A DNA stretch of 52,455 nt from positions 1 to 52,455 of IMG/VR virus record IMGVR_UViG_3300037962_000290. One strand, 5' to 3'. Below are positions 28,181 to 43,841 of this stretch, in pieces. Numbering within the stretch: position 1 is the first letter of the stretch; each line of letters starts with the position of its first letter. A program made the position numbers and the translations under genes. The notes beneath the pieces were generated by a model that had not been told where the DNA came from, searched no databases, and saw only the letters and a program-made list of their open reading frames with translations. The stretch is from a virus. Lineage: Duplodnaviria > Caudoviricetes.

Positions 28181-29985
28181 ATTTTAGTGCTGGTGGATCA
28201 ACAGATATTGGTTCAATAACTCCAAGTACAAATAATAACTTAAATATAGGTAATATAGGTGCTGGTCTTGCATTATCTCAATTTTTACCCACTTCTACAG
28301 CTTTAAATTTAGCAAATAAAATAAATTTAACCCCAGCTCAATCTGCTTATTTAGCTAGTATGTTTGCACCTGGCTCAGGTGTTATAGATGCTTCTGGACA
28401 GTTTCCATCTTTTCCTGGTCGAGACGTTCCTTTAGAACAGGCATTTGCTGGTGAACCTATGCCAAGCATTAAAGAAAATATAGCAGCAGGCGGTATAGAT
28501 AGATATCTATTTGCACCATTACAAGGTTTGGGGGTTTTAAGCGATGCAGCTTATGGCATACCTGTAGCAGGACCACTTATTGCTAGCGGTCTTAAAACTC
28601 CTCTCGTACTAGCTAGTATGGTTTCTGGAATAGCTAAAGCTGGCAAATCAAGTAAATCTTTACCAATACAAAAAGAAATGTTTAGGATTCAAGGGGATGT
28701 ACAAAATAAATTAAACCCAACGCTCAAATATGATTTAGAAGGTATCCCGATAAATTATGAAAAATTAACAGAAGGCCAAAAAAAACGCAGAGGATATTCT
28801 TATGAACAAAAATATAATCAAATAGCTTTAAATGTAGACGAAATAGATGAAATAGCAGATTGGGTTAGTGGAGATTTAAGCAAAAAAAATAAATCTCAAG
28901 AGTATTTAGAAGATATAAATCCATTTATTGAAAATTTAGAAAAAACTGGATTAACATCTAATTCACAAGCTTTTTTACGTCAGTTTGCTGATAAGAATGG
29001 CAACATTAAAGTATACAGATATCTTAGTATAGGTGAAGGTGGTGGGAAAAAGCTCATGCCAGAAAAAGGTATAGTAAGCACTACCATAAATCCAAATCAT
29101 GCTGTAGAACAAGGATTAATTGAAAAGACAAAAAATATTACTGTAGCTACAAAAGATTATGTGCAACCTGATATGATGGCAGATCCATTTGAAAAACAAA
29201 TAGCATTTGAAAAAGCATTAAAAGAAGGTACTTTAAAAAGAAAAAAATTAATACGTGATACTTATATATTAGAGTACGATATACCTGTAGAAAAAGTTAA
29301 AGGTTATATGCCTGCTGTATATGCATCAATACCTGAAAGAGCTAAAGATAATTATGTTCGTAACATTGCTGAAGATAATTATGAAGTTGACCAAATAATG
29401 GAGGAATTAGCAGAGTATTCAGATGTGGATGTAGAAGATATTGCGAGAGATGACGCAATAGATGAAGTAATTCGTAAGTATCAATTACGAGAAGATTTAG
29501 ACTATAGTATACATGCGCCTGACGAGTTTGAAGTAATAGCTAATTTAAAAAATGTTAAACCAACTGCAACATATAAAGTGTCTGATAAAAATACAATCGA
29601 GGCTGTTAAAGGATTAAAAGGAGGCGGTGAGGTAAGTTCTATATCAAATGTTGGGTCCATAACCCCTATACCTCCATCAGAAATGCGTGAGGCTTTTGGT
29701 GGTCCTTTTTATCAGATGATGAATCCTGGTGCTCAACGTATGGTTGATGCTATGGGTTTACGTGGTGCGGGCATGAAAGGATTGTTATCTGAAGCTATAG
29801 GACCAGGAGGTAAATTTAAGCTAAGTAAGGCTGCTATGGCTAAAATAAAACCTTTATTACAGCAAAGAAAAAGAGAGTTAGACTTATCTACTAATTATGA
29901 TGCAGTAGAAAGAACAGCCGCACAAAATAGAGTCAAACAAATTGAAAAACAAATAGATAAAATAATAGCAGATGACCAATCCTAA
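28177..29985 (+). CDS. Probable -1 frameshift extension containing an ADP-ribosyltransferase-like domain (annotated ORF 28360-29985)
   Basis: Frame open from 28102 with no ATG until 28360; VYR, STT and EFE motifs. Confidence 0.55.
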   Translation, partial: LNFSAGGSTDIGSITPSTNNNLNIGNIGAGLALSQFLPTSTALNLANKINLTPAQSAYLASMFAPGSGVIDASGQFPSFPGRDVPLEQAFAGEPMPSIKENIAAGGIDRYLFAPLQGLGVLSDAAYGIPVAGPLIASGLKTPLVLASMVSGIAKAGKSSKSLPIQKEMFRIQGDVQNKLNPTLKYDLEGIPINYEKLTEGQKKRRGYSYEQKYNQIALNVDEIDEIADWVSGDLSKKNKSQEYLEDINPFIENLEKTGLTSNSQAFLRQFADKNGNIKVYRYLSIGEGGGKKLMPEKGIVSTTINPNHAVEQGLIEKTKNITVATKDYVQPDMMADPFEKQIAFEKALKEGTLKRKKLIRDTYILEYDIPVEKVKGYMPAVYASIPERAKDNYVRNIAEDNYEVDQIMEELAEYSDVDVEDIARDDAIDEVIRKYQLREDLDYSIHAPDEFEVIANLKNVKPTATYKVSDKNTIEAVKGLKGGGEVSSISNVGSITPIPPSEMREAFGGPFYQMMNPGAQRMVDAMGLRGAGMKGLLSEAIGPGGKFKLSKAAMAKIKPLLQQRKRELDLSTNYDAVERTAAQNRVKQIEKQIDKIIADDQS

Positions 29986-31441
29986 TTTTTCGCATTTATC
30001 TGATTCAGAAATACGCGAAACTCTTATGTTGCAAGAGCGTCTTGCTCTAATAGAACAGCAAAATAAATGTCAAGAATCTTTTTTGGATTTTGTTAATTAC
30101 ATGTGGCCAGAGTTTATTTGTGGCAGACACCATAAAATTTTTGCACAAAAGTTAGAAGAAGTTGCTAATGGTACTTGTAAACGTTTGATTGTTAATATGC
30201 CACCAAGACACACCAAGTCTGAGTTTTGCTCCACCTATTTCCCTGCTTGGATTATGGGTAAACAGCCCAACCGTAAAATAATGCAGACCACTCATACAGG
30301 CGAGCTAGCTGTAAGGTTTGGTCGTAAAGTTAGAAACATGATGGATACCGAAGAATATAAAAAAATATTTAGTAAGGTAGAACTACAAGCCGATTCAAAG
30401 TCTGCAGGACGTTGGGAAACTAACAAAGGGGGCGAATATTTCGCAGCAGGTGTAGGTGGAGCTATAACAGGTCGTGGTGCTGATTTGTTAATTATTGACG
30501 ATCCACACTCAGAACAAGATGCACTTAGTCCTACAGCTATGGAGGCATGTTGGGAATGGTACACCTCTGGACCTAGACAACGTTTACAACCAGGCGGAGC
30601 TATCATATTGGTTATGACTAGGTGGAGTTCACTAGATCTTACAGAAAAGTTATTAGAGGCGCAAAAGGAAGAGTTAGCTGACCAGTGGGATATTGTAGAG
30701 TTTCCTGCTATTTTTGAGGATTCTGGTAATCCTTTGTGGCCTGAGTTTTGGAATATAGACGAACTTAGTAAAGTAAAAGCTTCACTCCCTACACAAAAAT
30801 GGAACGCCCAGTGGATGCAAACCCCAACTGCAGAAGAAGGTTCTATAATTAAACGTGAGTGGTGGAACGCTTGGGAATATGATTCCTTGCCGCCTGTAAA
30901 ATATATTATTCAAAGTTATGATACTGCCTACAGTAAAAAGCAAAATAGTGACTACTCTGCTATTTCTACTTGGGGTGTATTTAATCCTACACCTGATGAC
31001 CCAGATTCTATTATTTTGCTAGATGCACAAAAGGGTAGGTGGGACTTTCCTGAATTAAAACGGGTAGCTTACGAAGAATATAAGTATTGGGATCCTGACA
31101 TGACTTTGGTTGAAGCAAAAGCATCTGGTACGCCACTTACACATGAATTGCGTAGATTAGGTATTCCTGTCGTAAATTACTCTCCGACCAGAGGACACGA
31201 CAAATCAACGAGGATGCACTCTGTTGCACCTATATTTGAATCTGGGTTAGTGTGGGCACCACAAAAAAAGTTTGCAGAAGATATGATTGAAGAATGTGCA
31301 GCCTTTCCTTTTGGTAAAAATGACGATTTATGTGATACTATGTCTCAAGCCCTAATGCGTTTTAGGGAGGGCGGTCTGGTTTCGCTACATGATGATTATG
31401 CAGACGAAGAAAGAGCGGTAATTAAAAGAGCGTATTACTGA
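29972..31441 (+). CDS. terL: Terminase large subunit
   Basis: NMPPRHTKSE, GRGADLLIIDDPH, QSYDTAY, VEAKASG, FPFGKNDDLCD. Confidence 0.97.
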   Translation: MTNPNFSHLSDSEIRETLMLQERLALIEQQNKCQESFLDFVNYMWPEFICGRHHKIFAQKLEEVANGTCKRLIVNMPPRHTKSEFCSTYFPAWIMGKQPNRKIMQTTHTGELAVRFGRKVRNMMDTEEYKKIFSKVELQADSKSAGRWETNKGGEYFAAGVGGAITGRGADLLIIDDPHSEQDALSPTAMEACWEWYTSGPRQRLQPGGAIILVMTRWSSLDLTEKLLEAQKEELADQWDIVEFPAIFEDSGNPLWPEFWNIDELSKVKASLPTQKWNAQWMQTPTAEEGSIIKREWWNAWEYDSLPPVKYIIQSYDTAYSKKQNSDYSAISTWGVFNPTPDDPDSIILLDAQKGRWDFPELKRVAYEEYKYWDPDMTLVEAKASGTPLTHELRRLGIPVVNYSPTRGHDKSTRMHSVAPIFESGLVWAPQKKFAEDMIEECAAFPFGKNDDLCDTMSQALMRFREGGLVSLHDDYADEERAVIKRAYY

Positions 31442-31761
31442 TGACAGTAGAAAATTTTGAAAAAGACAATACATTCAATAAAAATTTTTCTTTTTTAAAA
31501 AATTGGCATGAAGAAAATTACACTTTATTACCAAAAGGTAGTAAAAACAAAGACACTTCTATGCAGTTAGGTACGTTTGAGTTTGATGGTATTACATATA
31601 TTTTACCAACTTATAAAAAAGGTAAAGGTAAGATTGGATCTAATGAGTTTTTAGATGAAATTAAGACTGGCAAAATATTAGGATATAATTCTGACAGTGC
31701 TGCACAAAAAGATCTTGAAAAAATTAGAGCAAAAATTTTAGGTAAGCAAAATGGCAATTGA
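31441..31761 (+). CDS. Hypothetical protein between terL and portal
   Basis: TGATG coupling; overlaps the portal start. Confidence 0.6.
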   Translation: MTVENFEKDNTFNKNFSFLKNWHEENYTLLPKGSKNKDTSMQLGTFEFDGITYILPTYKKGKGKIGSNEFLDEIKTGKILGYNSDSAAQKDLEKIRAKILGKQNGN

Positions 31762-34213
31762 AAAACAAGACAATACCCCAGAACCAATAGATTCTTTACA
31801 AGGTACTGAAGATATGACGGTTGCTGTGGAGGCAATAGAAGAAGCAAACGAAGAGGAATTTGAATTACAAGAAGACGGTAGTGCTATTTTAGGTGGTATG
31901 GATGACATGCCAATAGATGATGGCTTTGGATCTAATTTAGCTGAGTTTTTGGACGACAACCAACTAAATACAATATCTATAGAATTAACAGCAGGTATTG
32001 AAAAAGATAAATCCTCCAGAGAAGACTGGGAAAAAACTTATACAGACGGTCTTAAATACCTAGGCATGAAGTTTGACCAAGAAAGGTCAGAGCCTTTTGC
32101 TGGTGCATCTGGTGTCATACATCCCTTGTTAGGTGAAGCTGTCACAAATTTCCAAGCTCAAGCCTACAAAGAGTTATTACCTTCAGGTGGTCCCGTAAAA
32201 ACTCAAGTAGTTGGCAAATATGATTCAATAGTAGAAGAACAAGCGCAAAGAGTTGCTGATTTTATGAACTATCAAATTGTGCATGTTATGGAAGAGTTTG
32301 ATGAAGAGTTAGATCAAATGCTTTTTTATCTACCACTAGCAGGTTCAGCGTTTAAAAAAATATATTATGATGAAAACCTTGGTCGTGCTGTATCTAAATT
32401 TATAGCACCAGAGGATTTAATTGTCCCTTATTTTTCAACTGACCTAGAAACCTGTCCTAGAATAACAAATGTAGTAAAAATGCCTGAAAATGAGCTCAAA
32501 AAGCTGCAAGCTATAGGTTTTTACAAGAAAGTTGACGTAAGTAATAGTTATTCTCCTGAAAATAGTCAAGTACAAGAAGAAATAGATGAGTTATCAGGCC
32601 TTGAACCTAGTTATGATCTGGGTGAAGTATCTGTTTTATACGAAGTCCACTGTAATTTAGATATAGATGGTTTTGAAGATGTGGATGAAAACGGTAACAT
32701 GACTGGTGTAAAGCTACCTTATATCGTAACTATAGATGCTAGTAGTAATAGTGTCTTAAGTATTTACCGTAATTATGCAGAAAATGATCCTTTACGTAAA
32801 AAAATAGAGTATTTTGTGCACTTTAAGTTTTTACCTGGCCTAGGATTCTATGGATTTGGCCTAACACACATGATAGGCGGTCTTTCAAAGGCTTCTACAA
32901 GCATATTAAGGCAGTTAATTGACGCTGGTACCCTTGCAAACTTACCTGCAGGATTTAAAACGCGTGGAATTAGAATTAGAGACGAAGATACACCATTACA
33001 ACCAGGTGAATTTAGAGATGTTGATGCTCCAGGTGGTATTTTAGGGCAAGCTATACAGCCATTACCTTTTAAAGAGCCTAGTCAAACACTTTTAAGCTTA
33101 TTAAATTTATTGGTAAATGCAGGCCAAAGGTTTGCATCTATTGCTGAAATAAACGTAGGTCAAGGCAATCCAAATGCCCCTGTTGGAACAACACTAGCCT
33201 TGCTTGAAAGATCTACAAAAGTTTTGTCTGCCATACATAAAAGACTACATAACTCACAAAAGAAAGAATTTCGTATTCTAGCTAATGTATTTCAAGAATA
33301 TTTACCGCAAGAGTATCCGTATAACGTAGCAAATGCTAATAACAGTATTAAATTAACTGATTTTGATGAAAGAGTTGATATTTTTCCAATATCTAATCCA
33401 GATATATTTAGTCAATCACAACGTATTGCTATGGCACAAGAAATGATGCAATTAGTGCAATCTAACCCAGAAGTACACGGCGCAGCAGGTATTTATGAGT
33501 CATACAAGCGTATGTATGCTGCAATTGGAGTAGATAATATAGAACAAATATTAATGCCGCCGCCATCAACTGAACCACAACCACAAGAAGCTGGTTTTGA
33601 AAATAACGCATTATTACTGGGTAATCCTGCTAAGGCTTTTCCAGAACAAAACCATGACGCACATGTTGCAACACACATGAGTTTGTTAAATACACCTCCT
33701 GTTCAAATGAACGCACAGGTACAAGCTTTAATACATGCACATATTATGGAGCATTTACAAATGAAAGCTGATATTGTAGCCCAGCAACAAATGCCACCAG
33801 AGGCTATGCAACAGTTCCAACAGTTACAACAGCAAGCTCAACAAGTTAGCCCAGCTGAACAGCAAGCTATTATGCGAGAGGCTAATAATTTGTTAGCACA
33901 ATTTTCTGCTCCAATCATGTCTCAGCTTATTGCCGAATATACATCTAAAATAGCATCTCCTGATGACGAAGATCCATTAGTAGCTATAAGAAAACAAGAG
34001 TTAGCTTTAAAAGGACAGGAATTGGCTATGGAGCAGCAACAATTTATAGCACAAGAAAATAGAAAAGCACAAGACGCTGCAACCAGAGCTCAAATAGATC
34101 GAGAAAGAATTGACGCATCAGAAGAAATAGCTGAAATGCGTGATGAAACAGCTAGAGCTAGACTAGATCAACAACGTGAATTTAAAAATTTAGATATACT
34201 TACTAGAAATTAA
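31751..34213 (+). CDS. Portal protein (P22-like long portal)
   Basis: 820 aa downstream of terL; HPLLGEAV, GSAFKKIYYD, PGLGFYGFGL; long C-terminal coiled coil. Confidence 0.9.
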   Translation: MAIEKQDNTPEPIDSLQGTEDMTVAVEAIEEANEEEFELQEDGSAILGGMDDMPIDDGFGSNLAEFLDDNQLNTISIELTAGIEKDKSSREDWEKTYTDGLKYLGMKFDQERSEPFAGASGVIHPLLGEAVTNFQAQAYKELLPSGGPVKTQVVGKYDSIVEEQAQRVADFMNYQIVHVMEEFDEELDQMLFYLPLAGSAFKKIYYDENLGRAVSKFIAPEDLIVPYFSTDLETCPRITNVVKMPENELKKLQAIGFYKKVDVSNSYSPENSQVQEEIDELSGLEPSYDLGEVSVLYEVHCNLDIDGFEDVDENGNMTGVKLPYIVTIDASSNSVLSIYRNYAENDPLRKKIEYFVHFKFLPGLGFYGFGLTHMIGGLSKASTSILRQLIDAGTLANLPAGFKTRGIRIRDEDTPLQPGEFRDVDAPGGILGQAIQPLPFKEPSQTLLSLLNLLVNAGQRFASIAEINVGQGNPNAPVGTTLALLERSTKVLSAIHKRLHNSQKKEFRILANVFQEYLPQEYPYNVANANNSIKLTDFDERVDIFPISNPDIFSQSQRIAMAQEMMQLVQSNPEVHGAAGIYESYKRMYAAIGVDNIEQILMPPPSTEPQPQEAGFENNALLLGNPAKAFPEQNHDAHVATHMSLLNTPPVQMNAQVQALIHAHIMEHLQMKADIVAQQQMPPEAMQQFQQLQQQAQQVSPAEQQAIMREANNLLAQFSAPIMSQLIAEYTSKIASPDDEDPLVAIRKQELALKGQELAMEQQQFIAQENRKAQDAATRAQIDRERIDASEEIAEMRDETARARLDQQREFKNLDILTRN

Positions 34214-37169: not shown

Positions 37170-38072
37170 ATGGCAATTAATAGAGCGCAATTAGCGAAAG
37201 AATTAGAGCCAGGTCTTAACGCCTTGTTCGGTATGGAATATGCCAGATACGAATCTCAACATGAAGAAATTTATGAAACTGAGTCTTCTGATAGAGCGTT
37301 TGAAGAAGAAACCCTAATAGTAGGGTTTGGTAACGCAGAAGTAAAAGCTGAAGGTAGTGGTGTCAGATTTGATACAGCTAACGAAGGTTATACTTCACGT
37401 TATACCCACGAAACAGTGGCTTTAGCTTTCGCACTAACTGAAGAAGCAATTGAAGATAATCTTTATGATAGACTCGGCGCAAGATACACTAAAGCTTTAG
37501 CAAGATCTATGGCTAACACAAAGCAAATCAAAGCAGCTGCAGTATTAAACAACGCGTTTAGTACAACAGGCGGTGACGGTAAAACGCTTGTGGCTACAGA
37601 TCATCCACTAGGCGGCGGTGGTTCACTAGCAAATAGAGCTACCACTATGGCGGATCTTAATGAAACTTCACTAGAAGACTCACTTATTAATATTTCTACA
37701 TTTACAGATGATAGAGGTCTTAATATTGCGTTAAAAGGTATGAAGTTAATTATTCCACCACAATTAGTGTTTGTTGCTGACAGATTACTACAAAGCCCAG
37801 GCAGAGTAGGAACATCTGACAACGACATTAATGCTATAGCAAATACTGGTATGCTTCCTGATGGATATGTTGTAAACAACTATCTAACAGATACAGATGC
37901 GTATTTCATTAAAACTGACTGCCCAGACGGGTTTAAGTATTTTGAAAGATCTCCTATGCAAACTGCATTAGAGGGTGACTTCGATACAGGTAACATGAGA
38001 TACAAAGCTAGAGAGCGTTATAGTTTTGGATATTCTAACTTTAGAGCCGTTTACGGTTCTCAAGGAGCTTAA
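37170..38072 (+). CDS. Major capsid protein (HK97 fold)
   Basis: MAINRAQLAKELEPGLNALFG, TEEAIEDNLY, LIIPPQL, YKARERYSFG; followed by a strong terminator. Confidence 0.9.
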   Translation: MAINRAQLAKELEPGLNALFGMEYARYESQHEEIYETESSDRAFEEETLIVGFGNAEVKAEGSGVRFDTANEGYTSRYTHETVALAFALTEEAIEDNLYDRLGARYTKALARSMANTKQIKAAAVLNNAFSTTGGDGKTLVATDHPLGGGGSLANRATTMADLNETSLEDSLINISTFTDDRGLNIALKGMKLIIPPQLVFVADRLLQSPGRVGTSDNDINAIANTGMLPDGYVVNNYLTDTDAYFIKTDCPDGFKYFERSPMQTALEGDFDTGNMRYKARERYSFGYSNFRAVYGSQGA

Positions 38073-38113: not shown

Positions 38114-38138
38114 AAAGGGAGCTTCGGCTCCCTTTTTT
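38114..38138 (+). terminator. Rho-independent terminator
   Basis: AAAGGGAGC-TTCG-GCTCCCTTT with T tract (cUUCGg tetraloop). Confidence 0.92.
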
Positions 38139-38241: not shown

Positions 38242-38958
38242 ATGGCTAATCCACATTTTCAAAACTTAATATTATGGGCAGGTAATACTGTTGCAACTGA
38301 GCACAAGAAAAACCAGCCTATGTTCGCACCATATCCATCAGATCAAACATTTTATATGTATCATAATGACTTTTTTACATATAATTCTGGTGATTGGACT
38401 ATAACAACTACTGAGGCTGGTACTGGTAGTGCGTCTGAAGCTGTAACTTCATCAGCAGGAGGAGCTTTATTGCTTACTAATGCTGCAGGAGATAACGATT
38501 TAGACTTTTTACAATTAAAAGGTGAAGGGTTTAAATTAAGCACAAGTAAGAAAGCATATTTTTCTGCCAGATTCAAAGTAAATGATGTAGACCAATCTGA
38601 CTTTGTTATGGGTCTTGGTATAACAGATACAACACCTCTTGATACTACAGACGGTGTTTTCTTCATTTCTGCAGACGGTGACGCAGGTTTAGATTTCTTG
38701 GTTGAGAAAGACAATACTGCAACTACAACAGAAGATGTAGCAACTATGGCAGATGATACATTTATCACAACAACCTGGTTTATTGATCCTGACGCTTCAA
38801 AAGTATTTTATTCAATAAATAATGCTGCACCAGTTGGAGTTGCTATTACAAATCTACCTGATGATGAAGAATTAACCGTATCATTTGGTATTCAAAATGG
38901 TGAAGCTTCAGCACAAACTATGACTATTGACTACGTTGTAGCAGCTGTAGAAAGATAG
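38242..38958 (+). CDS. Putative structural protein (beta-sandwich)
   Basis: Thr/Ala/Asp-rich, beta-rich; AAGGAG RBS; downstream of the MCP. Confidence 0.6.
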   Translation: MANPHFQNLILWAGNTVATEHKKNQPMFAPYPSDQTFYMYHNDFFTYNSGDWTITTTEAGTGSASEAVTSSAGGALLLTNAAGDNDLDFLQLKGEGFKLSTSKKAYFSARFKVNDVDQSDFVMGLGITDTTPLDTTDGVFFISADGDAGLDFLVEKDNTATTTEDVATMADDTFITTTWFIDPDASKVFYSINNAAPVGVAITNLPDDEELTVSFGIQNGEASAQTMTIDYVVAAVER

Positions 38959-38967
38959 GAGTAAACA

Positions 38968-39369
38968 ATGGCAGATACAGTAACTTCGCAAACTATTCAA
39001 GATGGTGAAAAAACTGCTGTCTTGAAATTTACAAATGTATCAGATGGAACGGGTGAATCTGCTGTAAAAAAAGTAGATGTGTCAGCACTTACTACTAATA
39101 GTGCTGGTGAATCTTGTACCTCCGTATCAGTTGCTAGAATTTATTGGGCCTGTAGAGGTATGGGCGTAAATATAGAGTTTGATGCATCAACTAACGTATT
39201 AATTACTGGCTTACCGTCAGATAGTACAGGTGATGAGTATTATGATATTTTTACAGGCATACCTAACAACGCTGGTTCTGGAGTAACAGGAGATATTGAT
39301 TTTACAACTGTTGGACACTCTAGTGGTGATACATATTCAATAATACTTGTTTTGAATAAGAATTATTAA
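38968..39369 (+). CDS. Putative structural protein
   Basis: MADTVTSQTIQDG...TGDIDFTT; AGGAG RBS. Confidence 0.6.
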   Translation: MADTVTSQTIQDGEKTAVLKFTNVSDGTGESAVKKVDVSALTTNSAGESCTSVSVARIYWACRGMGVNIEFDASTNVLITGLPSDSTGDEYYDIFTGIPNNAGSGVTGDIDFTTVGHSSGDTYSIILVLNKNY

Positions 39370-39372
39370 TGA

Positions 39373-39651
39373 ATGGCACAGTACAAAGGCAAAACCGTTA
39401 CTCTTAATAGACCTAGGGCTCTTCGTAAAGGAGAGCCTGGTTATGGTAAAAAAAGAAAAGTAGTTTTTGTAAAAGGCTGTAGCAGTGAAAAATCAAGAGT
39501 AAAACGTATTACTTTTGGTGATGCCAAGCTAGGTATGCATAAAAATAATCCCAAACGTAAAAAATCATACTGTGCTAGAAGTAAAGGTATGGGTGGGACA
39601 ACAGACAGATGTAGTGCTAACTACTGGGCTAGACGAGATTGGGATTGTTAA
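39373..39651 (+). CDS. Small basic (Lys/Arg-rich) protein
   Basis: ITFGD, RKKSYCARS, ANYWARRDWDC. Confidence 0.75.
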   Translation: MAQYKGKTVTLNRPRALRKGEPGYGKKRKVVFVKGCSSEKSRVKRITFGDAKLGMHKNNPKRKKSYCARSKGMGGTTDRCSANYWARRDWDC

Positions 39652-39945
39652 ATGGCAAAAAAACGTGATCCTAAGGTTGGGACAGGTAAAAAACCAAAAG
39701 GCAGCGGTAGAAGGCTATATACAGACGAAAATCCTAAAGATACCGTATCAATTAAGTATGCAACAGTACAAGATGCCAGAGATACAGTAGCAAAGGTAAA
39801 ACGCACCAGAAAACCTTTTGCAAGATTAATACAAATACTTACTGTAGGAGAACAAAGATCTAAATATGGTGGTAAGCCAAAACAAGCTGAAATATTTAGA
39901 CGTGGTAAAGACTCAATACGTAAAAAGTTTGGTAGAACTAAATAA
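39652..39945 (+). CDS. Small basic protein
   Basis: DPKVGTGKKPKGSGRRLYTDENPKDTVSI. Confidence 0.75.
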   Translation: MAKKRDPKVGTGKKPKGSGRRLYTDENPKDTVSIKYATVQDARDTVAKVKRTRKPFARLIQILTVGEQRSKYGGKPKQAEIFRRGKDSIRKKFGRTK

Positions 39946-40280
39946 TGTATCCTGTTTATAACAAATTTTATTACAAACCTTTACCAGACTGTATAGAAGT
40001 TCAAAAAAGTCCTATAGAAGGATTTGGTCTGTTTGCTGTAGATAATATTCATGAAGAATTTGATTTAGGTATGTCACATATAAAAGTGCCGATTATTCAA
40101 GGATATGTTAGAACCTCTATAGGAGGCTTTTTAAATCACTCAGAAGATTCTAATTGTTACCTTAGCGAAGAGCTAGACTGGGACGATTACAGAGTTTATA
40201 ACGTAATAACATCAAAAAAAATTAGTGTTGGCGAGGAGCTTACGCTAAACTATCACTTAGACGGATTAAATTATGGCTAA
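39945..40280 (+). CDS. SET-domain protein-lysine methyltransferase
   Basis: SPIEGFGLFA (motif I), GGFLNHSEDSNC (NHS motif), GEELTLNY (catalytic Tyr motif). Confidence 0.9.
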   Translation: MYPVYNKFYYKPLPDCIEVQKSPIEGFGLFAVDNIHEEFDLGMSHIKVPIIQGYVRTSIGGFLNHSEDSNCYLSEELDWDDYRVYNVITSKKISVGEELTLNYHLDGLNYG

Positions 40281-40590
40281 AGAAAAATTAAAAAAAGTAA
40301 TTAAGGGTTTGCAAAAAGCAAGTAAAACTCATGCAAAACAAGCTAAGACCTTACAGTCATTAAAAATGAAAAAAGGTGGTGCAGCTAAAAGCAAAGGTAA
40401 AATATGTAAAAAAGGTATAGAATGGGCCAAAAGGACTTTTGATGTTTATCCTTCTGCGTACGCAAATTTAGCTGCTTCTAAATATTGTAAAGATCCTAAT
40501 TACGCAAAGAAAGATAAAAAAAGAAGGAAAGCTAGATTTGGTGGGCCAATAAGAGGACAAGGTATTGTTATGTCGGATAGGCTAAGATGA
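40273..40590 (+). CDS. Small Lys-rich protein
   Basis: MKKGG, YPSAYAN, FGGPIRGQGIVM. Confidence 0.75.
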   Translation: MAKEKLKKVIKGLQKASKTHAKQAKTLQSLKMKKGGAAKSKGKICKKGIEWAKRTFDVYPSAYANLAASKYCKDPNYAKKDKKRRKARFGGPIRGQGIVMSDRLR

Positions 40591-41024
40591 GTAAAGGACA
40601 ACTACAAGAATGGGTAGATAATGAATGGGTAAGAATAGGGGCAGACGGTTCAATATTAGGATCTTGCGGTGGTAGAGAGGAAGCTGAGGGTAAACCAAAG
40701 TGTTTGCCTAAGAAAAAAGCACAAAGTTTATCTAAAGAAGAAAGAAAAAAATTAGTTGAAAGGAAAAGAAGAAAAGATCCAAACCCAAATAGAAAAGGTA
40801 AACCTATTATGGTTTCTAATAAATTAAAATCAGGAGGCAAAGTGAAAAAACTAAAACCTATACCGCCAGGCAACAAAGGTTTGCCTAAATTACCAAAAGA
40901 AGTTCGTAATAAAATGGGTTATTTTGTTGAAGGTGGAAGAGCAGAAAAAAAGAAAGGTGGCAAGATAGCTAGAGGTTGTGGTAAAGTTATGTCTAATAGG
41001 CGTAAATATACAACCATAAGTTAG
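40587..41024 (+). CDS. Small Lys-rich protein
   Basis: LQEWV.NEWV, CG...PKCLP, three xxGG motifs, ARGCGKVM. Confidence 0.75.
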   Translation: MSKGQLQEWVDNEWVRIGADGSILGSCGGREEAEGKPKCLPKKKAQSLSKEERKKLVERKRRKDPNPNRKGKPIMVSNKLKSGGKVKKLKPIPPGNKGLPKLPKEVRNKMGYFVEGGRAEKKKGGKIARGCGKVMSNRRKYTTIS

Positions 41025-41033
41025 GAGATAAAT

Positions 41034-41198
41034 ATGCCAAAATCAAAAACTAAAGTAGATCCAAAAATGCAAGCAAGATTGGATGCAAAAGTTAGACCAG
41101 ATGAGCCAGTAAAGGAAGATCGTATTTACATAAATATGAAACCAAAAAAGAAAGCTCCTGCAAAAAAAACGACAAAAAAGAAATTAAGTAAAAAGTAA
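41034..41198 (+). CDS. Small Lys-rich protein (54 aa, not in ORF track)
   Basis: AGGAG RBS; MPKSKTK...KPKKKAPAKKTTKKKLSKK (histone H1-like tail). Confidence 0.7.
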   Translation: MPKSKTKVDPKMQARLDAKVRPDEPVKEDRIYINMKPKKKAPAKKTTKKKLSKK

Positions 41199-41209
41199 GG
41201 AGTACTATT

Positions 41210-41479
41210 ATGCCAGGTCATTATAAAAAGTCTAAAAACGGCAGTATGATGAAAAAGTCTAAAGGCGGTATGATGATGAAAAAATCCAAAGGCGGTTCAC
41301 TTATGAAAAAGTCTAAAGGTGGCTCATTAATGAAGAAGTCTAAAGGTGGAAGCATGATGAAGAAATCTAAAGGCGGGTCTTTAATGAAAAAATCTAAAGG
41401 CGGAAGTATGATGAAAATGTCCAAAGGTGGTTCAGTCATGATTGCAGGCAACGCTAATAGAAGAAGAAGCAAGTTCTAA
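41210..41479 (+). CDS. Basic repeat protein, 8 x (KKSKGGSxM)
   Basis: AAGGAG RBS; 9-aa repeat. Confidence 0.8.
   Translation: MPGHYKKSKNGSMMKKSKGGMMMKKSKGGSLMKKSKGGSLMKKSKGGSMMKKSKGGSLMKKSKGGSMMKMSKGGSVMIAGNANRRRSKF
41225..41440 (+). repeat. 27-bp coding tandem repeat x8
   Basis: Units such as aaaaagtctaaaggtggctcattaatg differ mainly at synonymous sites. Confidence 0.9.
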
Positions 41480-41480
41480 A

Positions 41481-42155
41481 GTGTCGTATTTGATAAGTAA
41501 TATCCCACATTTTAAATGTTGGGTTAGGAGAGAGTTTACGCACAATCACGAGAATTACCAAGGTGAGTATTTACATGCCTTGGCCATAGCAGTTAATACA
41601 ATACCTGATAGATCATTAAGTTTCCAAGTAGTCTTTACTGGAGAGGAAGCAAACTGTGAAGATTGGGACGAAGGAAATATCCATGGTGGTGCTATGTGGG
41701 CTCGTATGCCTATCCAAGGTTTAGTTGCGGATATACCTATGGACGATTTCCCTAGGCCTATGGAGGACCATTTAGCACAGCCTTGGGATTGTGAAGCTAG
41801 AGATCATAGTGTTGTTGTAATGGATAGAGTAAGTTCTTCACCTTGGATCGCAAAAATTCATGGTAATTTTTATCAAGCAAAATATTTATTTACCGTAGAT
41901 TACACAAATACTGATATTGCAGATGACCCTGCACAACATAAACAAAGTCATGTATTATATATAACTGAAGACTGTGAATGGAAAGGTAACTTAGTTGCTT
42001 TGCCTAATAATAGAGTAAGAGCTACTAGCCCTGCTTTATGGGTAACGGGTGAAGGACCTCCACAGTTTAAACCCTCGCAGTGGAAACACTCTGCAGAGGG
42101 GCATGAAAGTTATTTAGATCCCTCAATAACTTTTGATAATTTATATGAGGATTAG
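41481..42155 (+). CDS. Conserved hypothetical phage protein (likely GTG start at 41481)
   Basis: SYLISNIP..CWVRREF, GAMWARMPI, YLFTVDY, ALPNNR; the GTG follows the upstream stop. Confidence 0.75.
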   Translation: MSYLISNIPHFKCWVRREFTHNHENYQGEYLHALAIAVNTIPDRSLSFQVVFTGEEANCEDWDEGNIHGGAMWARMPIQGLVADIPMDDFPRPMEDHLAQPWDCEARDHSVVVMDRVSSSPWIAKIHGNFYQAKYLFTVDYTNTDIADDPAQHKQSHVLYITEDCEWKGNLVALPNNRVRATSPALWVTGEGPPQFKPSQWKHSAEGHESYLDPSITFDNLYED

Positions 42156-42157
42156 TT

Positions 42158-42829
42158 ATGGCAACATCAAATAGTACAGATTTTGAACCAAATGTAGCCG
42201 AGTTTGTAGAAGAAGCTTTTGAAAGATGTGGTTTAGAGTTAAGAACAGGATATGATCTAAAAACTGCACGAAGATCTATAAATCTTATGTTAGCTGAATG
42301 GGCTAATAGGGGATTAAACCAGTGGACTATAGAACAAGCTACACAAACAGTCACAGAGGGCACAACAGATTATTCTTTAAACTCGAATGTTATTGATATT
42401 TTAGACGTTGTTCTACGTAGAACAATTAATCAAACTCAGACAGATATTAGTATGAATCGTATTAGTAGATCTGAATATATCAACATACCAAACAAAACAA
42501 CAAAAGCTAGACCGTCACAATTTTTTCTTGATAAATTGTCAATACCTACGTTAAAAGTATGGCCAGCACCTGAAAACTCTACAGATATTTTAGTGTTTAA
42601 TAAAATAGTTAGAATGGATGATGCAGATAAGCCAACAAATACTATGGATATGCCATTTAGATTTTATCCTTGTTTTGCAGCTGGATTAGCTTACTACATA
42701 TCGTTAAAAAGAGCTCCAGAAAGAACATCACAGTTAAAAGCTTTATATGAAGAGGAATTTGACAGAGCTATGTCTCAAGATGAGGATAGAGCCTCTTATA
42801 GGGTTAGACCAGACATAAGGATGAATTGA
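42158..42829 (+). CDS. Head-tail connector/adaptor protein
   Basis: EEAFERCG, YDLKTARRSINLM..EWANRG, LKALYEEEF. Confidence 0.65.
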   Translation: MATSNSTDFEPNVAEFVEEAFERCGLELRTGYDLKTARRSINLMLAEWANRGLNQWTIEQATQTVTEGTTDYSLNSNVIDILDVVLRRTINQTQTDISMNRISRSEYINIPNKTTKARPSQFFLDKLSIPTLKVWPAPENSTDILVFNKIVRMDDADKPTNTMDMPFRFYPCFAAGLAYYISLKRAPERTSQLKALYEEEFDRAMSQDEDRASYRVRPDIRMN

Positions 42830-43170
42830 TGGCTTACGCATCTGGCAAATTTGCAAAAGCTTTATGTGATAGATGTGCTTTTGAATACAAATTAAATGAT
42901 TTAAAAGAAGAATGGAATGGTTTAAAAGTATGTCCAGATTGTTACGAACCTAAACATCCACAACTAGAGCCTTTGACTGCTACAGCTGATCCAGAGGCTT
43001 TGTACAAGCCAAGACCCAATAACGATAAGGAAGAAGGAGAGGGTTTTGTCGTGGTAGTTAGTTCAGATATATTTAAACCAGATTTTTTAAACCCTGCAAC
43101 ACTACCAACCAACTTTACGGTTGATAAGATGACAGGTGGCGTTGGCGAGGTTACAATAGTTATATCATGA
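42829..43170 (+). CDS. Zn-finger protein
   Basis: CDRC...EWNGLKVCPDCYEPKHPQ. Confidence 0.7.
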   Translation: MAYASGKFAKALCDRCAFEYKLNDLKEEWNGLKVCPDCYEPKHPQLEPLTATADPEALYKPRPNNDKEEGEGFVVVVSSDIFKPDFLNPATLPTNFTVDKMTGGVGEVTIVIS

Positions 43171-43841
43171 CCTTAGCAGAGCTGAAAACTTTAATACAAA
43201 ATTATACTGAGAATACAGAGACTACTTTTGTAAATACCTTAGATGATTTTATTAAAAATGCAGAGGAAAGAATATTTGAATTAATACAATTTGATTATTT
43301 TAGAAAAAATGTTACAGGAACTTTAACTACTGGAAACACATACTTAACTGCGCCTACTGATTACCAATTAAGTTTTTCACTAGCGATTATAGATAGTAGT
43401 GGAGATTATCACTATTTGGATAAAAAACACGTTACTTTTATGCGTGAATACTCTGTAGATCCAACAGATTCAACCGCTAGAGGCAGACCTTTATATTATG
43501 CAGATTTTGACAAAGATTTATCTACAGCTTCTGACAACGGCTCTACGTTAATCGTAAGCCCTGTTCCAGATGCAGATTATAATGTTGAATTACATTATTT
43601 ATTTAAGCCAAACTCTTTAGTGACAGACACAACAGGTACTTGGCTGTCTAATAATGCAAGAAATGCTTTGCTTTACGGTAGTTTAGCTGAAGCATATATA
43701 TTTATGAAAGGTGAAAATGATTTGACACAGCAATACGAGCAACGCTTTGCAAATGAAATATCGAGGTTAAAAAACCTTGCAGAAGCTCGCGGAAGGAGAG
43801 ATGAATACCGTTATGATTCTTTGAGGTCATCGGTAACGTAA
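43167..43841 (+). CDS. Head-tail adaptor / tail tubular protein
   Basis: MTLAELKTLIQNY, FIKNAEERI, P.PDADY.VEL.Y, LLYGSLAEA. Confidence 0.7.
   Translation: MTLAELKTLIQNYTENTETTFVNTLDDFIKNAEERIFELIQFDYFRKNVTGTLTTGNTYLTAPTDYQLSFSLAIIDSSGDYHYLDKKHVTFMREYSVDPTDSTARGRPLYYADFDKDLSTASDNGSTLIVSPVPDADYNVELHYLFKPNSLVTDTTGTWLSNNARNALLYGSLAEAYIFMKGENDLTQQYEQRFANEISRLKNLAEARGRRDEYRYDSLRSSVT

Follow-up and report, generated by a model that had tools for sequence, protein, structure and literature searches.

The virus-encoded SET enzyme vSET (A612L) of Paramecium bursaria chlorella virus 1 is a minimal lysine methyltransferase of about 110-120 amino acids, without pre- or post-SET domains, for which methylation of lysine 27 of the host histone H3 (H3K27) has been reported (PMC3089700). 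On the prokaryotic side, SET enzymes have been described as acting on small basic DNA-binding proteins, MC1-alpha in the case of Go1-SET of Methanosarcina mazei and histone H1 in the case of BaSET of Bacillus anthracis (PMC3980110). The present report concerns a vSET-like protein, hereafter SET, predicted from the virus record IMGVR_UViG_3300037962_000290, analysed as one whole record of 52,455 bases (the window), whose G+C content is about 35% and whose genes are almost all encoded on the + strand. Its gene belongs to a cassette (39373-41479) in which it is flanked by six highly basic open reading frames (ORFs), B1 to B6. While vSET has a host histone as its target, SET is encoded among phage-encoded basic proteins, and the hosts of this phage group, whose relatives infect Pelagibacter, are to our knowledge bacteria without histones. 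Go1-SET and BaSET would provide the closest functional analogy to an enzyme encoded beside its substrates, but they are cellular enzymes with tested substrates, whereas the candidate substrates here belong to unrelated, virus-only families and to a phage structural operon.

A further comparison is offered by the polyvalent and portal/MuF-fused packaged proteins, whose modules occur alone or fused to portal and other large virion proteins, and by T4 Alt, a late-made protein-modifying enzyme that is packed in the head with the DNA and injected, both treated in Iyer et al. (2017; PMC5512222). The cassette products would resemble Alt in late production and packing in the head, without homology to it, and the modules of the window are all free-standing and extremely basic. 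The main text of that paper contains none of the terms "SET domain," "lysine methyl" or "protein methyltransferase," and it was not searched for DUF5872 or DUF6321.

The reading preferred here, to which a probability of roughly 0.4 can be given, is that SET methylates cassette proteins in this lineage. SET would be made late, jointly with the cassette proteins, and would use S-adenosylmethionine (SAM) to methylate lysines on at least one of them, before or during packaging; the modification would alter the behaviour of these proteins without loss of charge, possibly through DNA binding or release, protease sensitivity or the blocking of other lysine modifications. The substrate above all, but also the activity of the enzyme and the location of the proteins in the virion, are proposed from sequence and gene context. 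A wider version, in which a writer and its substrates together prepare Lys-rich phage proteins that are packed with the genome and possibly enter the host, so that the DNA would arrive coated with pre-modified proteins, appears rather unlikely. What is new at this locus is a predicted vSET-like enzyme in a bacteriophage, accompanied by a candidate set of phage-encoded substrates.

The SET protein and its basic neighbours

The SET gene (39945-40280, + strand) encodes 111 amino acids with a net charge of -9 and is predicted to specify a minimal SET-domain protein lysine methyltransferase. The product matches Pfam PF00856 with 32.4 bits against a cut-off of 22.4 (E 1.3e-7) and phrog_28741 with an E of 2.8e-22. 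Its motifs G26-F-G28, N64-H65-S66 and E97-E98-L-T-L-N-Y103 are paired by HMMER with SPIHGRGLF (GxG), FINHSCEPNCY (NHS...PNC) and GEELTYDY (ELxxxY) of MLL1, respectively, and Y103 occupies the position of the catalytic tyrosine of the SET family. In an alignment of 26 family members, reaching down to 39% identity, 20 columns are invariant in 26/26 sequences, including G26, G28, N64, H65, N70, C71, E97, E98 and Y103. The protein consists of the core alone, without a post-SET zinc cluster, and ends 8 residues after Y103.

The fold of the AlphaFold2 model (predicted local distance difference test, pLDDT, 83.7) leads to the same family. Solved chains gave 240 matches at E<=0.001, and among the matches listed all 44 are SET enzymes; the best is chlorovirus vSET (3kma_A, E 1.1e-6, template modelling score 0.65/0.69, 24% identity), which is also matched by sequence (1n3j_A, E 3e-4). 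A search of BFVD, a collection of predicted viral structures, placed SET proteins from uncultured tailed phages and from giant viruses at the head of the list. The first-pass annotation of this DNA had described a minimal 111-residue SET protein with intact GxG, NHS and ELxxxY motifs and had likened it to vSET; the profile, the invariant motifs and the structural comparison bear out both statements, and SET is, by sequence and by model, a genuine minimal SET protein of the vSET kind, and a conserved one. The family is well populated, with 437/440 candidate proteins of 61-195 amino acids matched at E<=0.001 and with 102, 57 and 81 confirmed stretches in three scans of viral contigs (240 in total, although the scans may overlap). 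vSET is dimeric and virion-packaged. One member of the present family, P0157, is a 199-residue tandem SET-SET fusion, and its existence hints that the minimal SET unit works as a dimer.

The median ratio of nonsynonymous to synonymous substitution rates (dN/dS), calculated for each cassette gene against 15-45 distinct orthologues, is 0.056 for SET. This value bears on the idea that SET is catalytically inert and, being acidic, binds or chaperones the basic proteins, an idea in keeping with a net charge of -9 among proteins of +14 to +27. However, catalytic and SAM-binding motifs that are invariant in all the aligned members, together with such a low dN/dS, make the pattern of an active enzyme, and an inert SET is therefore very improbable. 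A complex prediction of SET and B3 with SAM scored 0.00 in both runs, which counts neither for nor against binding.

All seven cassette genes lie on the + strand. B1 (39373-39651, 92 amino acids, net charge +20) is a diverged DUF6321-type basic protein, and B2 (39652-39945, 97 amino acids, +21) has a conserved core. Downstream of SET follow B3 (40273-40590, 105 amino acids, +26), in which a PSAY core is invariant and the tag RGQGxVMxxRLR is found at the C-terminus; B4 (40587-41024, 145 amino acids, +27), a free-standing copy of a DUF5872-type module; B5 (41034-41198, 54 amino acids, +14), with the Lys-rich tail KKAPAKKTTKKK; and B6 (41210-41479, 89 amino acids, +27), a KKSKGG-repeat protein. 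The isoelectric points of the six range from 10.4 to 11.9, and the next highest net charge among the 63 ORFs tabulated for the window is +9; since no other ORF exceeds this value, the charge cluster is not a mere effect of an A+T-rich genome. Purifying selection acts on all the basic genes as well (median dN/dS 0.13 for B1, 0.07 for B2, 0.12 for B3, 0.33 for B4, 0.16 for B5 and 0.09 for B6), and they are real genes. Six highly basic ORFs around SET, the B5 tail and the B6 repeats had all been noted at first pass and are all present. The translational coupling proposed at the same time fits part of the cassette: B1 and B2 abut (TAAATG), and overlaps of 1, 8 and 4 nucleotides (the last ATGA) join B2 to SET, SET to B3 and B3 to B4, whereas B5 and B6 follow gaps of 9-11 nucleotides and have an AGGAG site each.

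The position of SET inside the cassette is conserved. Among the 80 closest viral loci, in which SET is 74-99% identical and gene counts are lower bounds because many loci end early, B3 and B4 were found in 66 each, B1 and B2 in 55 each, B5 in 46 and B6 in 21. Fifty-one loci span the whole interval between the two acidic genes that bound the cassette, g133 upstream and g237 downstream; in 51/51 SET is the only acidic or neutral gene between them, in 45/51 every other ORF has a net charge of at least +10, and the remaining 6/51 also contain B3 or B4 fragments of +5 to +8. The interval holds 4-7 basic ORFs. The gene order of the window type, DUF6321-B2-SET-B3-B4, is replaced by DUF6321-B3-SET-B2-B4 beside an acidic gene of about 700 amino acids in another group of phages, made up of 10 L097-type loci and of L120, L127, L130 and L131. 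In the L068 type four basic ORFs, SET and g237 are followed by B2 and two more basic ORFs, and in the L082 type a basic ORF, B2 and SET stand between g223 and g114, two structural genes that in the window lie further downstream; B2 adjoins SET in the L082 and L097 arrangements.

When SET sequences were clustered at 80% identity, 42 lineages were obtained, 6 of which have a B1-B4 homologue in the locus. In these six, basic small ORFs account for 19/30 of the genes within three genes of SET and for 3/39 of those farther off. A quick tree places the basic-flanked SETs in one clade, as an illustration only, because the set lacked the SET ORF of 18 loci (10 of them of the L097 type). The embedding of SET among basic genes noted at first pass is thus a property of the lineage, kept through rearrangements: the cassette is lineage-specific and conserved, and within these lineages the association goes beyond chance and fits a functional tie.

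The basic proteins and their predicted place in the virion

The basic ORFs had been called histone-tail-like, and one of them H1-like, at first pass. No histone or H1 family of Pfam was found for B1-B6 at E<=0.1 or for B1-B4 at E<=10, and solved structures gave no histone chain for B1-B4 at E<=1, only rows at the level of chance. The histone-like character of these proteins is therefore one of composition, without histone homology. They belong instead, as far as sequence comparison goes, to virus-only families and modules: DUF6321, DUF5872-like and KGG-repeat proteins. The T4 internal proteins and the adenovirus core proteins VII, V and mu can be named as general comparators only.

B1 matches phrog_7595 (E 1.4e-7) and reaches 16.4 bits with DUF6321 (PF19846), below the cut-off of 28.5. 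Proteins in the same slot of related genomes (38.0 bits in L018, 46.2 in L068) and gp43 of phage HTVC023P (49.5 bits) pass this profile, and B1 shares with them the C-terminal motif K-S-[YF]-C-A-R-S. B2 has no match in Pfam or PHROG, and no family was found there for B5 or B6. B3 matches phrog_27331 (E 1.5e-19), and its residues P60, S61, A62 and Y63 are invariant in 16/16 sequences; B4 matches phrog_23735 (E 2.2e-11) and also phrog_727. The DUF5872 profile (PF19197) matches neither B3 nor B4 of the window and gives 19.3 bits, below the cut-off, with HTVC023P gp52. The ESM Atlas returned only unnamed viral clusters and leads to DUF5872, one of these, a DUF5872 cluster neighbouring B3 with a score of 0.92, being a lead only.

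B3 and B4, otherwise unrelated, have one tag in common at the C-terminus, with a basic end after [RK]G[QC]Gx[VI]M (40534-40590 and 40960-41024). Among 1958 distinct ORFs of related loci, the tag is present in 88, all of B3 or B4 type; it always ends 5 or 10 residues before the C-terminus, and it also occurs in 5/80 loci that do not contain SET. A common tag suggests a common fate of the two proteins and may be a targeting or processing signal. In some relatives (L027 3793-3918, L020 7232-7354 and others) a basic gene of 41 amino acids stands between g237 and g223; it matches only the N-terminal helix part of B3 (K-A-S-x-x-H-A-K-Q-A-K), and the window has no such ORF.

The repeat of B6 is a 27-nucleotide tandem array with seven copies of KKSKGG, one being KMSKGG. 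Six repeat units compared with each other show 58 synonymous against 14 amino-acid-changing codon differences, an excess from which selection for the peptide repeat can be deduced. Relatives have K-x-S/T-K...KGG repeat proteins in the same slot, with the variants KGSKYMAKGG, KASKYMAKGG and KKTKYMAKGG. The "KGG" repeat of stress proteins in Pfam was considered as a relative of B6 and set aside, B6 having no Pfam match. An antisense ORF of 83 amino acids (41221-41472) lies wholly inside the array and is read as its mirror image. Over B1-B6 the motif [KR]x?GG is enriched (14 occurrences against 4.4 in shuffles, P 0.0002), also when B6 is left out (7 against 2.6 expected, P 0.023). The adenovirus protease cleaves by the rule (M/L/I)xGG-x. 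Cleavage of the KGG motifs by an adenovirus-protease-like or double-glycine mechanism was considered and dropped, as the spacing misfits and no prohead protease was identified.

The predicted location of the cassette proteins follows from fusions. Thirty-six longer relatives of B4 were found. In two of them, P0121 and P0122 (754 and 757 amino acids), portal proteins of other phages, Phage_portal_3 (228.9 bits) forms the N-terminal domain, with DUF5872 (45.2 bits) and DUF3721 behind it, and residues 5-82 of B4 are 69% identical to residues 564-641 of P0121, in the DUF5872 region; others, of 448-523 amino acids, carry DUF5872 and a C-terminal DUF6321. Modules that occur both free-standing and fused to portal or MuF domains have been proposed to mark proteins that are loaded into the head and reach the host together with the DNA (Iyer et al., 2017; PMC5512222). 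By analogy with that rule, since some long proteins join the B4 module to a portal domain and others join DUF6321 to DUF5872, the basic proteins of the cassette are most likely head-internal and packed with the DNA, and perhaps ejected along with it, the portal fusion itself concerning the B4 module. A likely head-interior location could thus be assigned to two uncharacterised kinds of Pfam module, DUF6321 and the DUF5872 type.

Genomic setting and flanking genes

The cassette lies in the late structural operon, marked by the major capsid gene (37170-38072, + strand; phrog_371 major head protein, E 1.4e-26). Further upstream, PHROG scans located the large terminase (29972-31441) and the portal (31751-34213), and virion or tail genes continue from 42158 onward. 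The capsid gene shows 63-69% nucleotide identity to those of 023Pt_psg01, HTVC023P, HTVC027P and DSL-LC04, and these four, with the short match of C75C1 as a fifth, are the only relatives detected at the DNA level among deposited phages, mainly via the capsid gene. HTVC023P and HTVC027P are Pelagibacter phages. As its DNA-level relatives are these five records, the virus can be placed by sequence among the marine podophages, in the HTVC023P-type group of pelagiphages or close to it.

Directly 3' of the capsid gene and upstream of the cassette stands a strong hairpin resembling an intrinsic terminator by consensus match only (38114-38135, + strand; a 9-bp stem with 5 GC pairs, then a T run), and the terminator search found no hairpin of comparable strength within the cassette. 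The upstream bound is formed by two acidic genes, g238 and g133 (38242-39369, + strand; 238 and 133 amino acids, net -23 and -9), kept in related loci. On the downstream side, beyond g237, are the structural genes g223, g114 and g224 (42158-43841, + strand), of a head-tail or tail module, with matches to phrog_12985, phrog_28581 and phrog_2941 (virion structural) and phrog_10775 (tail protein). In metatranscriptomes (four runs, three studies), contigs were found that match parts of the capsid gene, of B1-B2, of B4-B6 and of g237, some of them identical to the window (e.g., 39683-39833 and 41097-41259); such contigs are no proof of transcription, and no claim of expression rests on them. In two of the RNA libraries the capsid pieces have a far higher contig depth than the cassette, a quantity that cannot rank genes.

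The downstream bound, g237 (41481-42155, + strand), is an acidic conserved protein (phrog_3704, E 1.1e-23) whose true start is the GTG at 41481 and not the TTG at 41442: orthologues begin with MSYLISNIP and align to the GTG. Its invariant motifs are QHKxxH, PNNR and FTxD, and a homologue stands within four genes of SET also in distant lineages (L133, L162, L164, L168-170, L172-174 and L224). The HTVC023P homologue is labelled "PurM" and the PHROG "ferredoxin"; neither label is backed by Pfam. The model of g237 is poor (pLDDT 58.8); in VIA-align its residues 6-92 gave Tudor, chromo, PWWP, SH3 and KOW-type barrels at Z 5.0-6.4, which is below the meaningful level and a lead only. In the boldest form of the proposal that SET writes a mark on its neighbours, g237 would read that mark, a conjecture drawn from these low-confidence barrel matches.

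SET outside the cassette and the possible targets

The family to which SET belongs (43-99% identity) occurs in podophage, siphophage and myophage contexts, and a series of comparisons beyond the lineage of the window weighs against cassette proteins as its general substrates. In 36/42 SET lineages no B1-B4 homologue lies near SET, and in those lineages basic small ORFs are not enriched around it (30/198 near SET, 42/327 farther). Neighbours were counted on the SET strand only, in 211 loci with a SET ORF: basic small ORFs flank SET on both sides in 79, on a single side in 28 and on neither examinable side in 104, and a contig end cuts 9 of the 104 and 5 of the 28. SET in the 36 lineages is found mostly among genes of replication or nucleotide metabolism: between RusA and a 2-oxoglutarate (2OG)-Fe(II) oxygenase, after ribonucleotide reductase, between a helicase and an endonuclease, between a primase-helicase and DNA polymerase, or among T4-type clamp-loader, RegA and polymerase genes. 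Elsewhere it is enclosed by tail-tube and UvsY genes, and its neighbours in the L217 type are scaffold, capsid and tail-tube genes. In L114-type lineages (27/217 surveyed loci; e.g., L114 3989-4856) the order is RusA-like resolvase, SET and a 2OG-Fe(II) oxygenase of 186 amino acids (phrog_61), and in another lineage (L150) such an oxygenase is encoded three genes downstream of SET.

Deposited phages give the same picture. SET follows an AAA protein in Kolga, lies between nrdB and talC in P-SSM7 and precedes the baseplate gene gp25 in P-RSM6, with no basic cluster beside it in any of the three. Neither B3 nor B4 is present in any of four deposited SET-bearing phage records; DUF6321 is found only in P-SSM7 among them, 7 kb away from SET. 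A complete record of 203 kb contains none of these three families. In two virus records (one complete, of 53 kb, and one 60% complete), SET and the basic cluster share a genome, about 17 and 21 kb apart. The 8 longer SET forms include no protein in which SET is fused to a basic protein.

The converse holds for the basic families. With low-complexity filtering, a tblastn search among deposited phages returned only phage C75C1 for B3 and B4, while an unfiltered local search found the homologues of HTVC023P and 023Pt_psg01. HTVC023P encodes DUF6321 (gp43), B3 (gp51) and B4 (gp52), and 023Pt_psg01 encodes B3 and B4 after the portal gene, both without SET. A scan of the viral collection with HTVC023P gp52 confirmed at least 596 B4-like stretches, and in the best 80 B4-centred loci B4 was present in 78, B3 in 69 and SET in none. 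Nor is the lysine share, K/(K+R), higher where SET is present: it is 0.74 for B3 and 0.70 for B4 in loci with SET, against 0.81 and 0.74 in loci without. HTVC023P gp53 (L002 14361-14726), encoded after the B3/B4 pair, has weak EF-hand-type matches (19.9 bits, below the cut-off) and no counterpart in the window. The statement that the position of SET might be random with respect to the basic genes in other genomes, set down at first pass as an outcome that would speak against a writer encoded beside its substrates, thus describes most lineages (36/42) and does not describe that of the window.

In our reading, the basic cassette is an old and widespread part of the structural module of a large marine podophage group, and marine phages carry SET as a small, mobile accessory gene in many contexts, one that in a minority of lineages has come to reside within the cassette. 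Because the enzyme is so widespread where the cassette proteins are missing, at least its ancestral target would have been something else, a host protein or any Lys-rich basic protein.

Such a target may also be the present one. The substrate of SET would then come from the host, or be any basic protein rich in lysine that the infected cell contains, with nucleoid-associated and ribosomal proteins as candidates. SET would possibly be co-packaged and injected, and its place in the cassette would be explained either as a slot of packaged, injected proteins or by insertion at a site that tolerates it, in a region that changes fast. Ribosomal proteins are methylated by SET enzymes in yeast. One SET family shared by podo-, sipho- and myophages, mostly in replication or nucleotide modules and often in phages that lack the basic families, points to a target common to many phage-host pairs, and the variable content of the cassette (the number of its basic ORFs, the alternative DUF6321 and repeat forms) suits an insertion site. 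Precedents can be cited for each part, vSET, one characterised viral SET enzyme, having a host substrate (PMC3089700) and T4 Alt being a host-modifying enzyme carried in the head (PMC5512222). Against this stand the absence of any other non-basic gene from the cassette in the lineage of the window, which makes it unlike a general dumping site, and the persistence of SET within the cassette through changes in the order and position of the latter; weaker evidence is the lack of a portal, MuF or large-cargo fusion among the longer SET forms. A host or general basic target is accordingly a tenable, if tentative, explanation that we hold at less than even odds.

The late structural operon holds SET between capsid and head-tail genes, and this location also raises the question of whether the major structural proteins (capsid, decoration, portal or adaptor) are methylated, for instance as a protection from proteases or from lysine-directed host defences, with the basic neighbours as bystanders. 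The baseplate genes next to SET in P-RSM6 and the scaffold, capsid and tail-tube genes of the L217 type agree with this, but most lineages hold SET in replication modules, and the capsid protein, g238 and g133 are Lys-poor (K fraction 0.03-0.05); nothing specific indicates them. Methylation of structural proteins is for these reasons improbable.

Methylation of the cassette proteins by SET in the lineage of the window remains the preferred reading. The "phage chromatin" module of a writer and its substrates that had been suggested for this locus is retained in part: SET is real, the basic cluster is real and the two are tightly linked in the lineage, but the histone homology implied by the term is lacking, and SET and the basic families are mostly apart elsewhere. 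Full-text searches yielded no publication on a phage-encoded SET enzyme that methylates lysines of proteins, and phage SET genes in public sources are only annotated automatically, as "SET domain-containing protein." For DUF5872 or DUF6321 one incidental mention was found, and the main text of the HTVC023P-type genome paper (PMC9599517) contains none of the terms "SET domain," methyltransferase, lysine, histone or basic.

The SET family is abundant in marine viral contigs and occurs in relatives of pelagiphages, which are among the commonest viruses of the sea, and the lineage described here encodes a small set of candidate substrates beside the enzyme. If the cassette proteins are methylated, they would be a first example of lysine modification by a phage on proteins that it encodes and packages; otherwise, the SET family would be a widespread host-directed enzyme. 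Either answer would be new.

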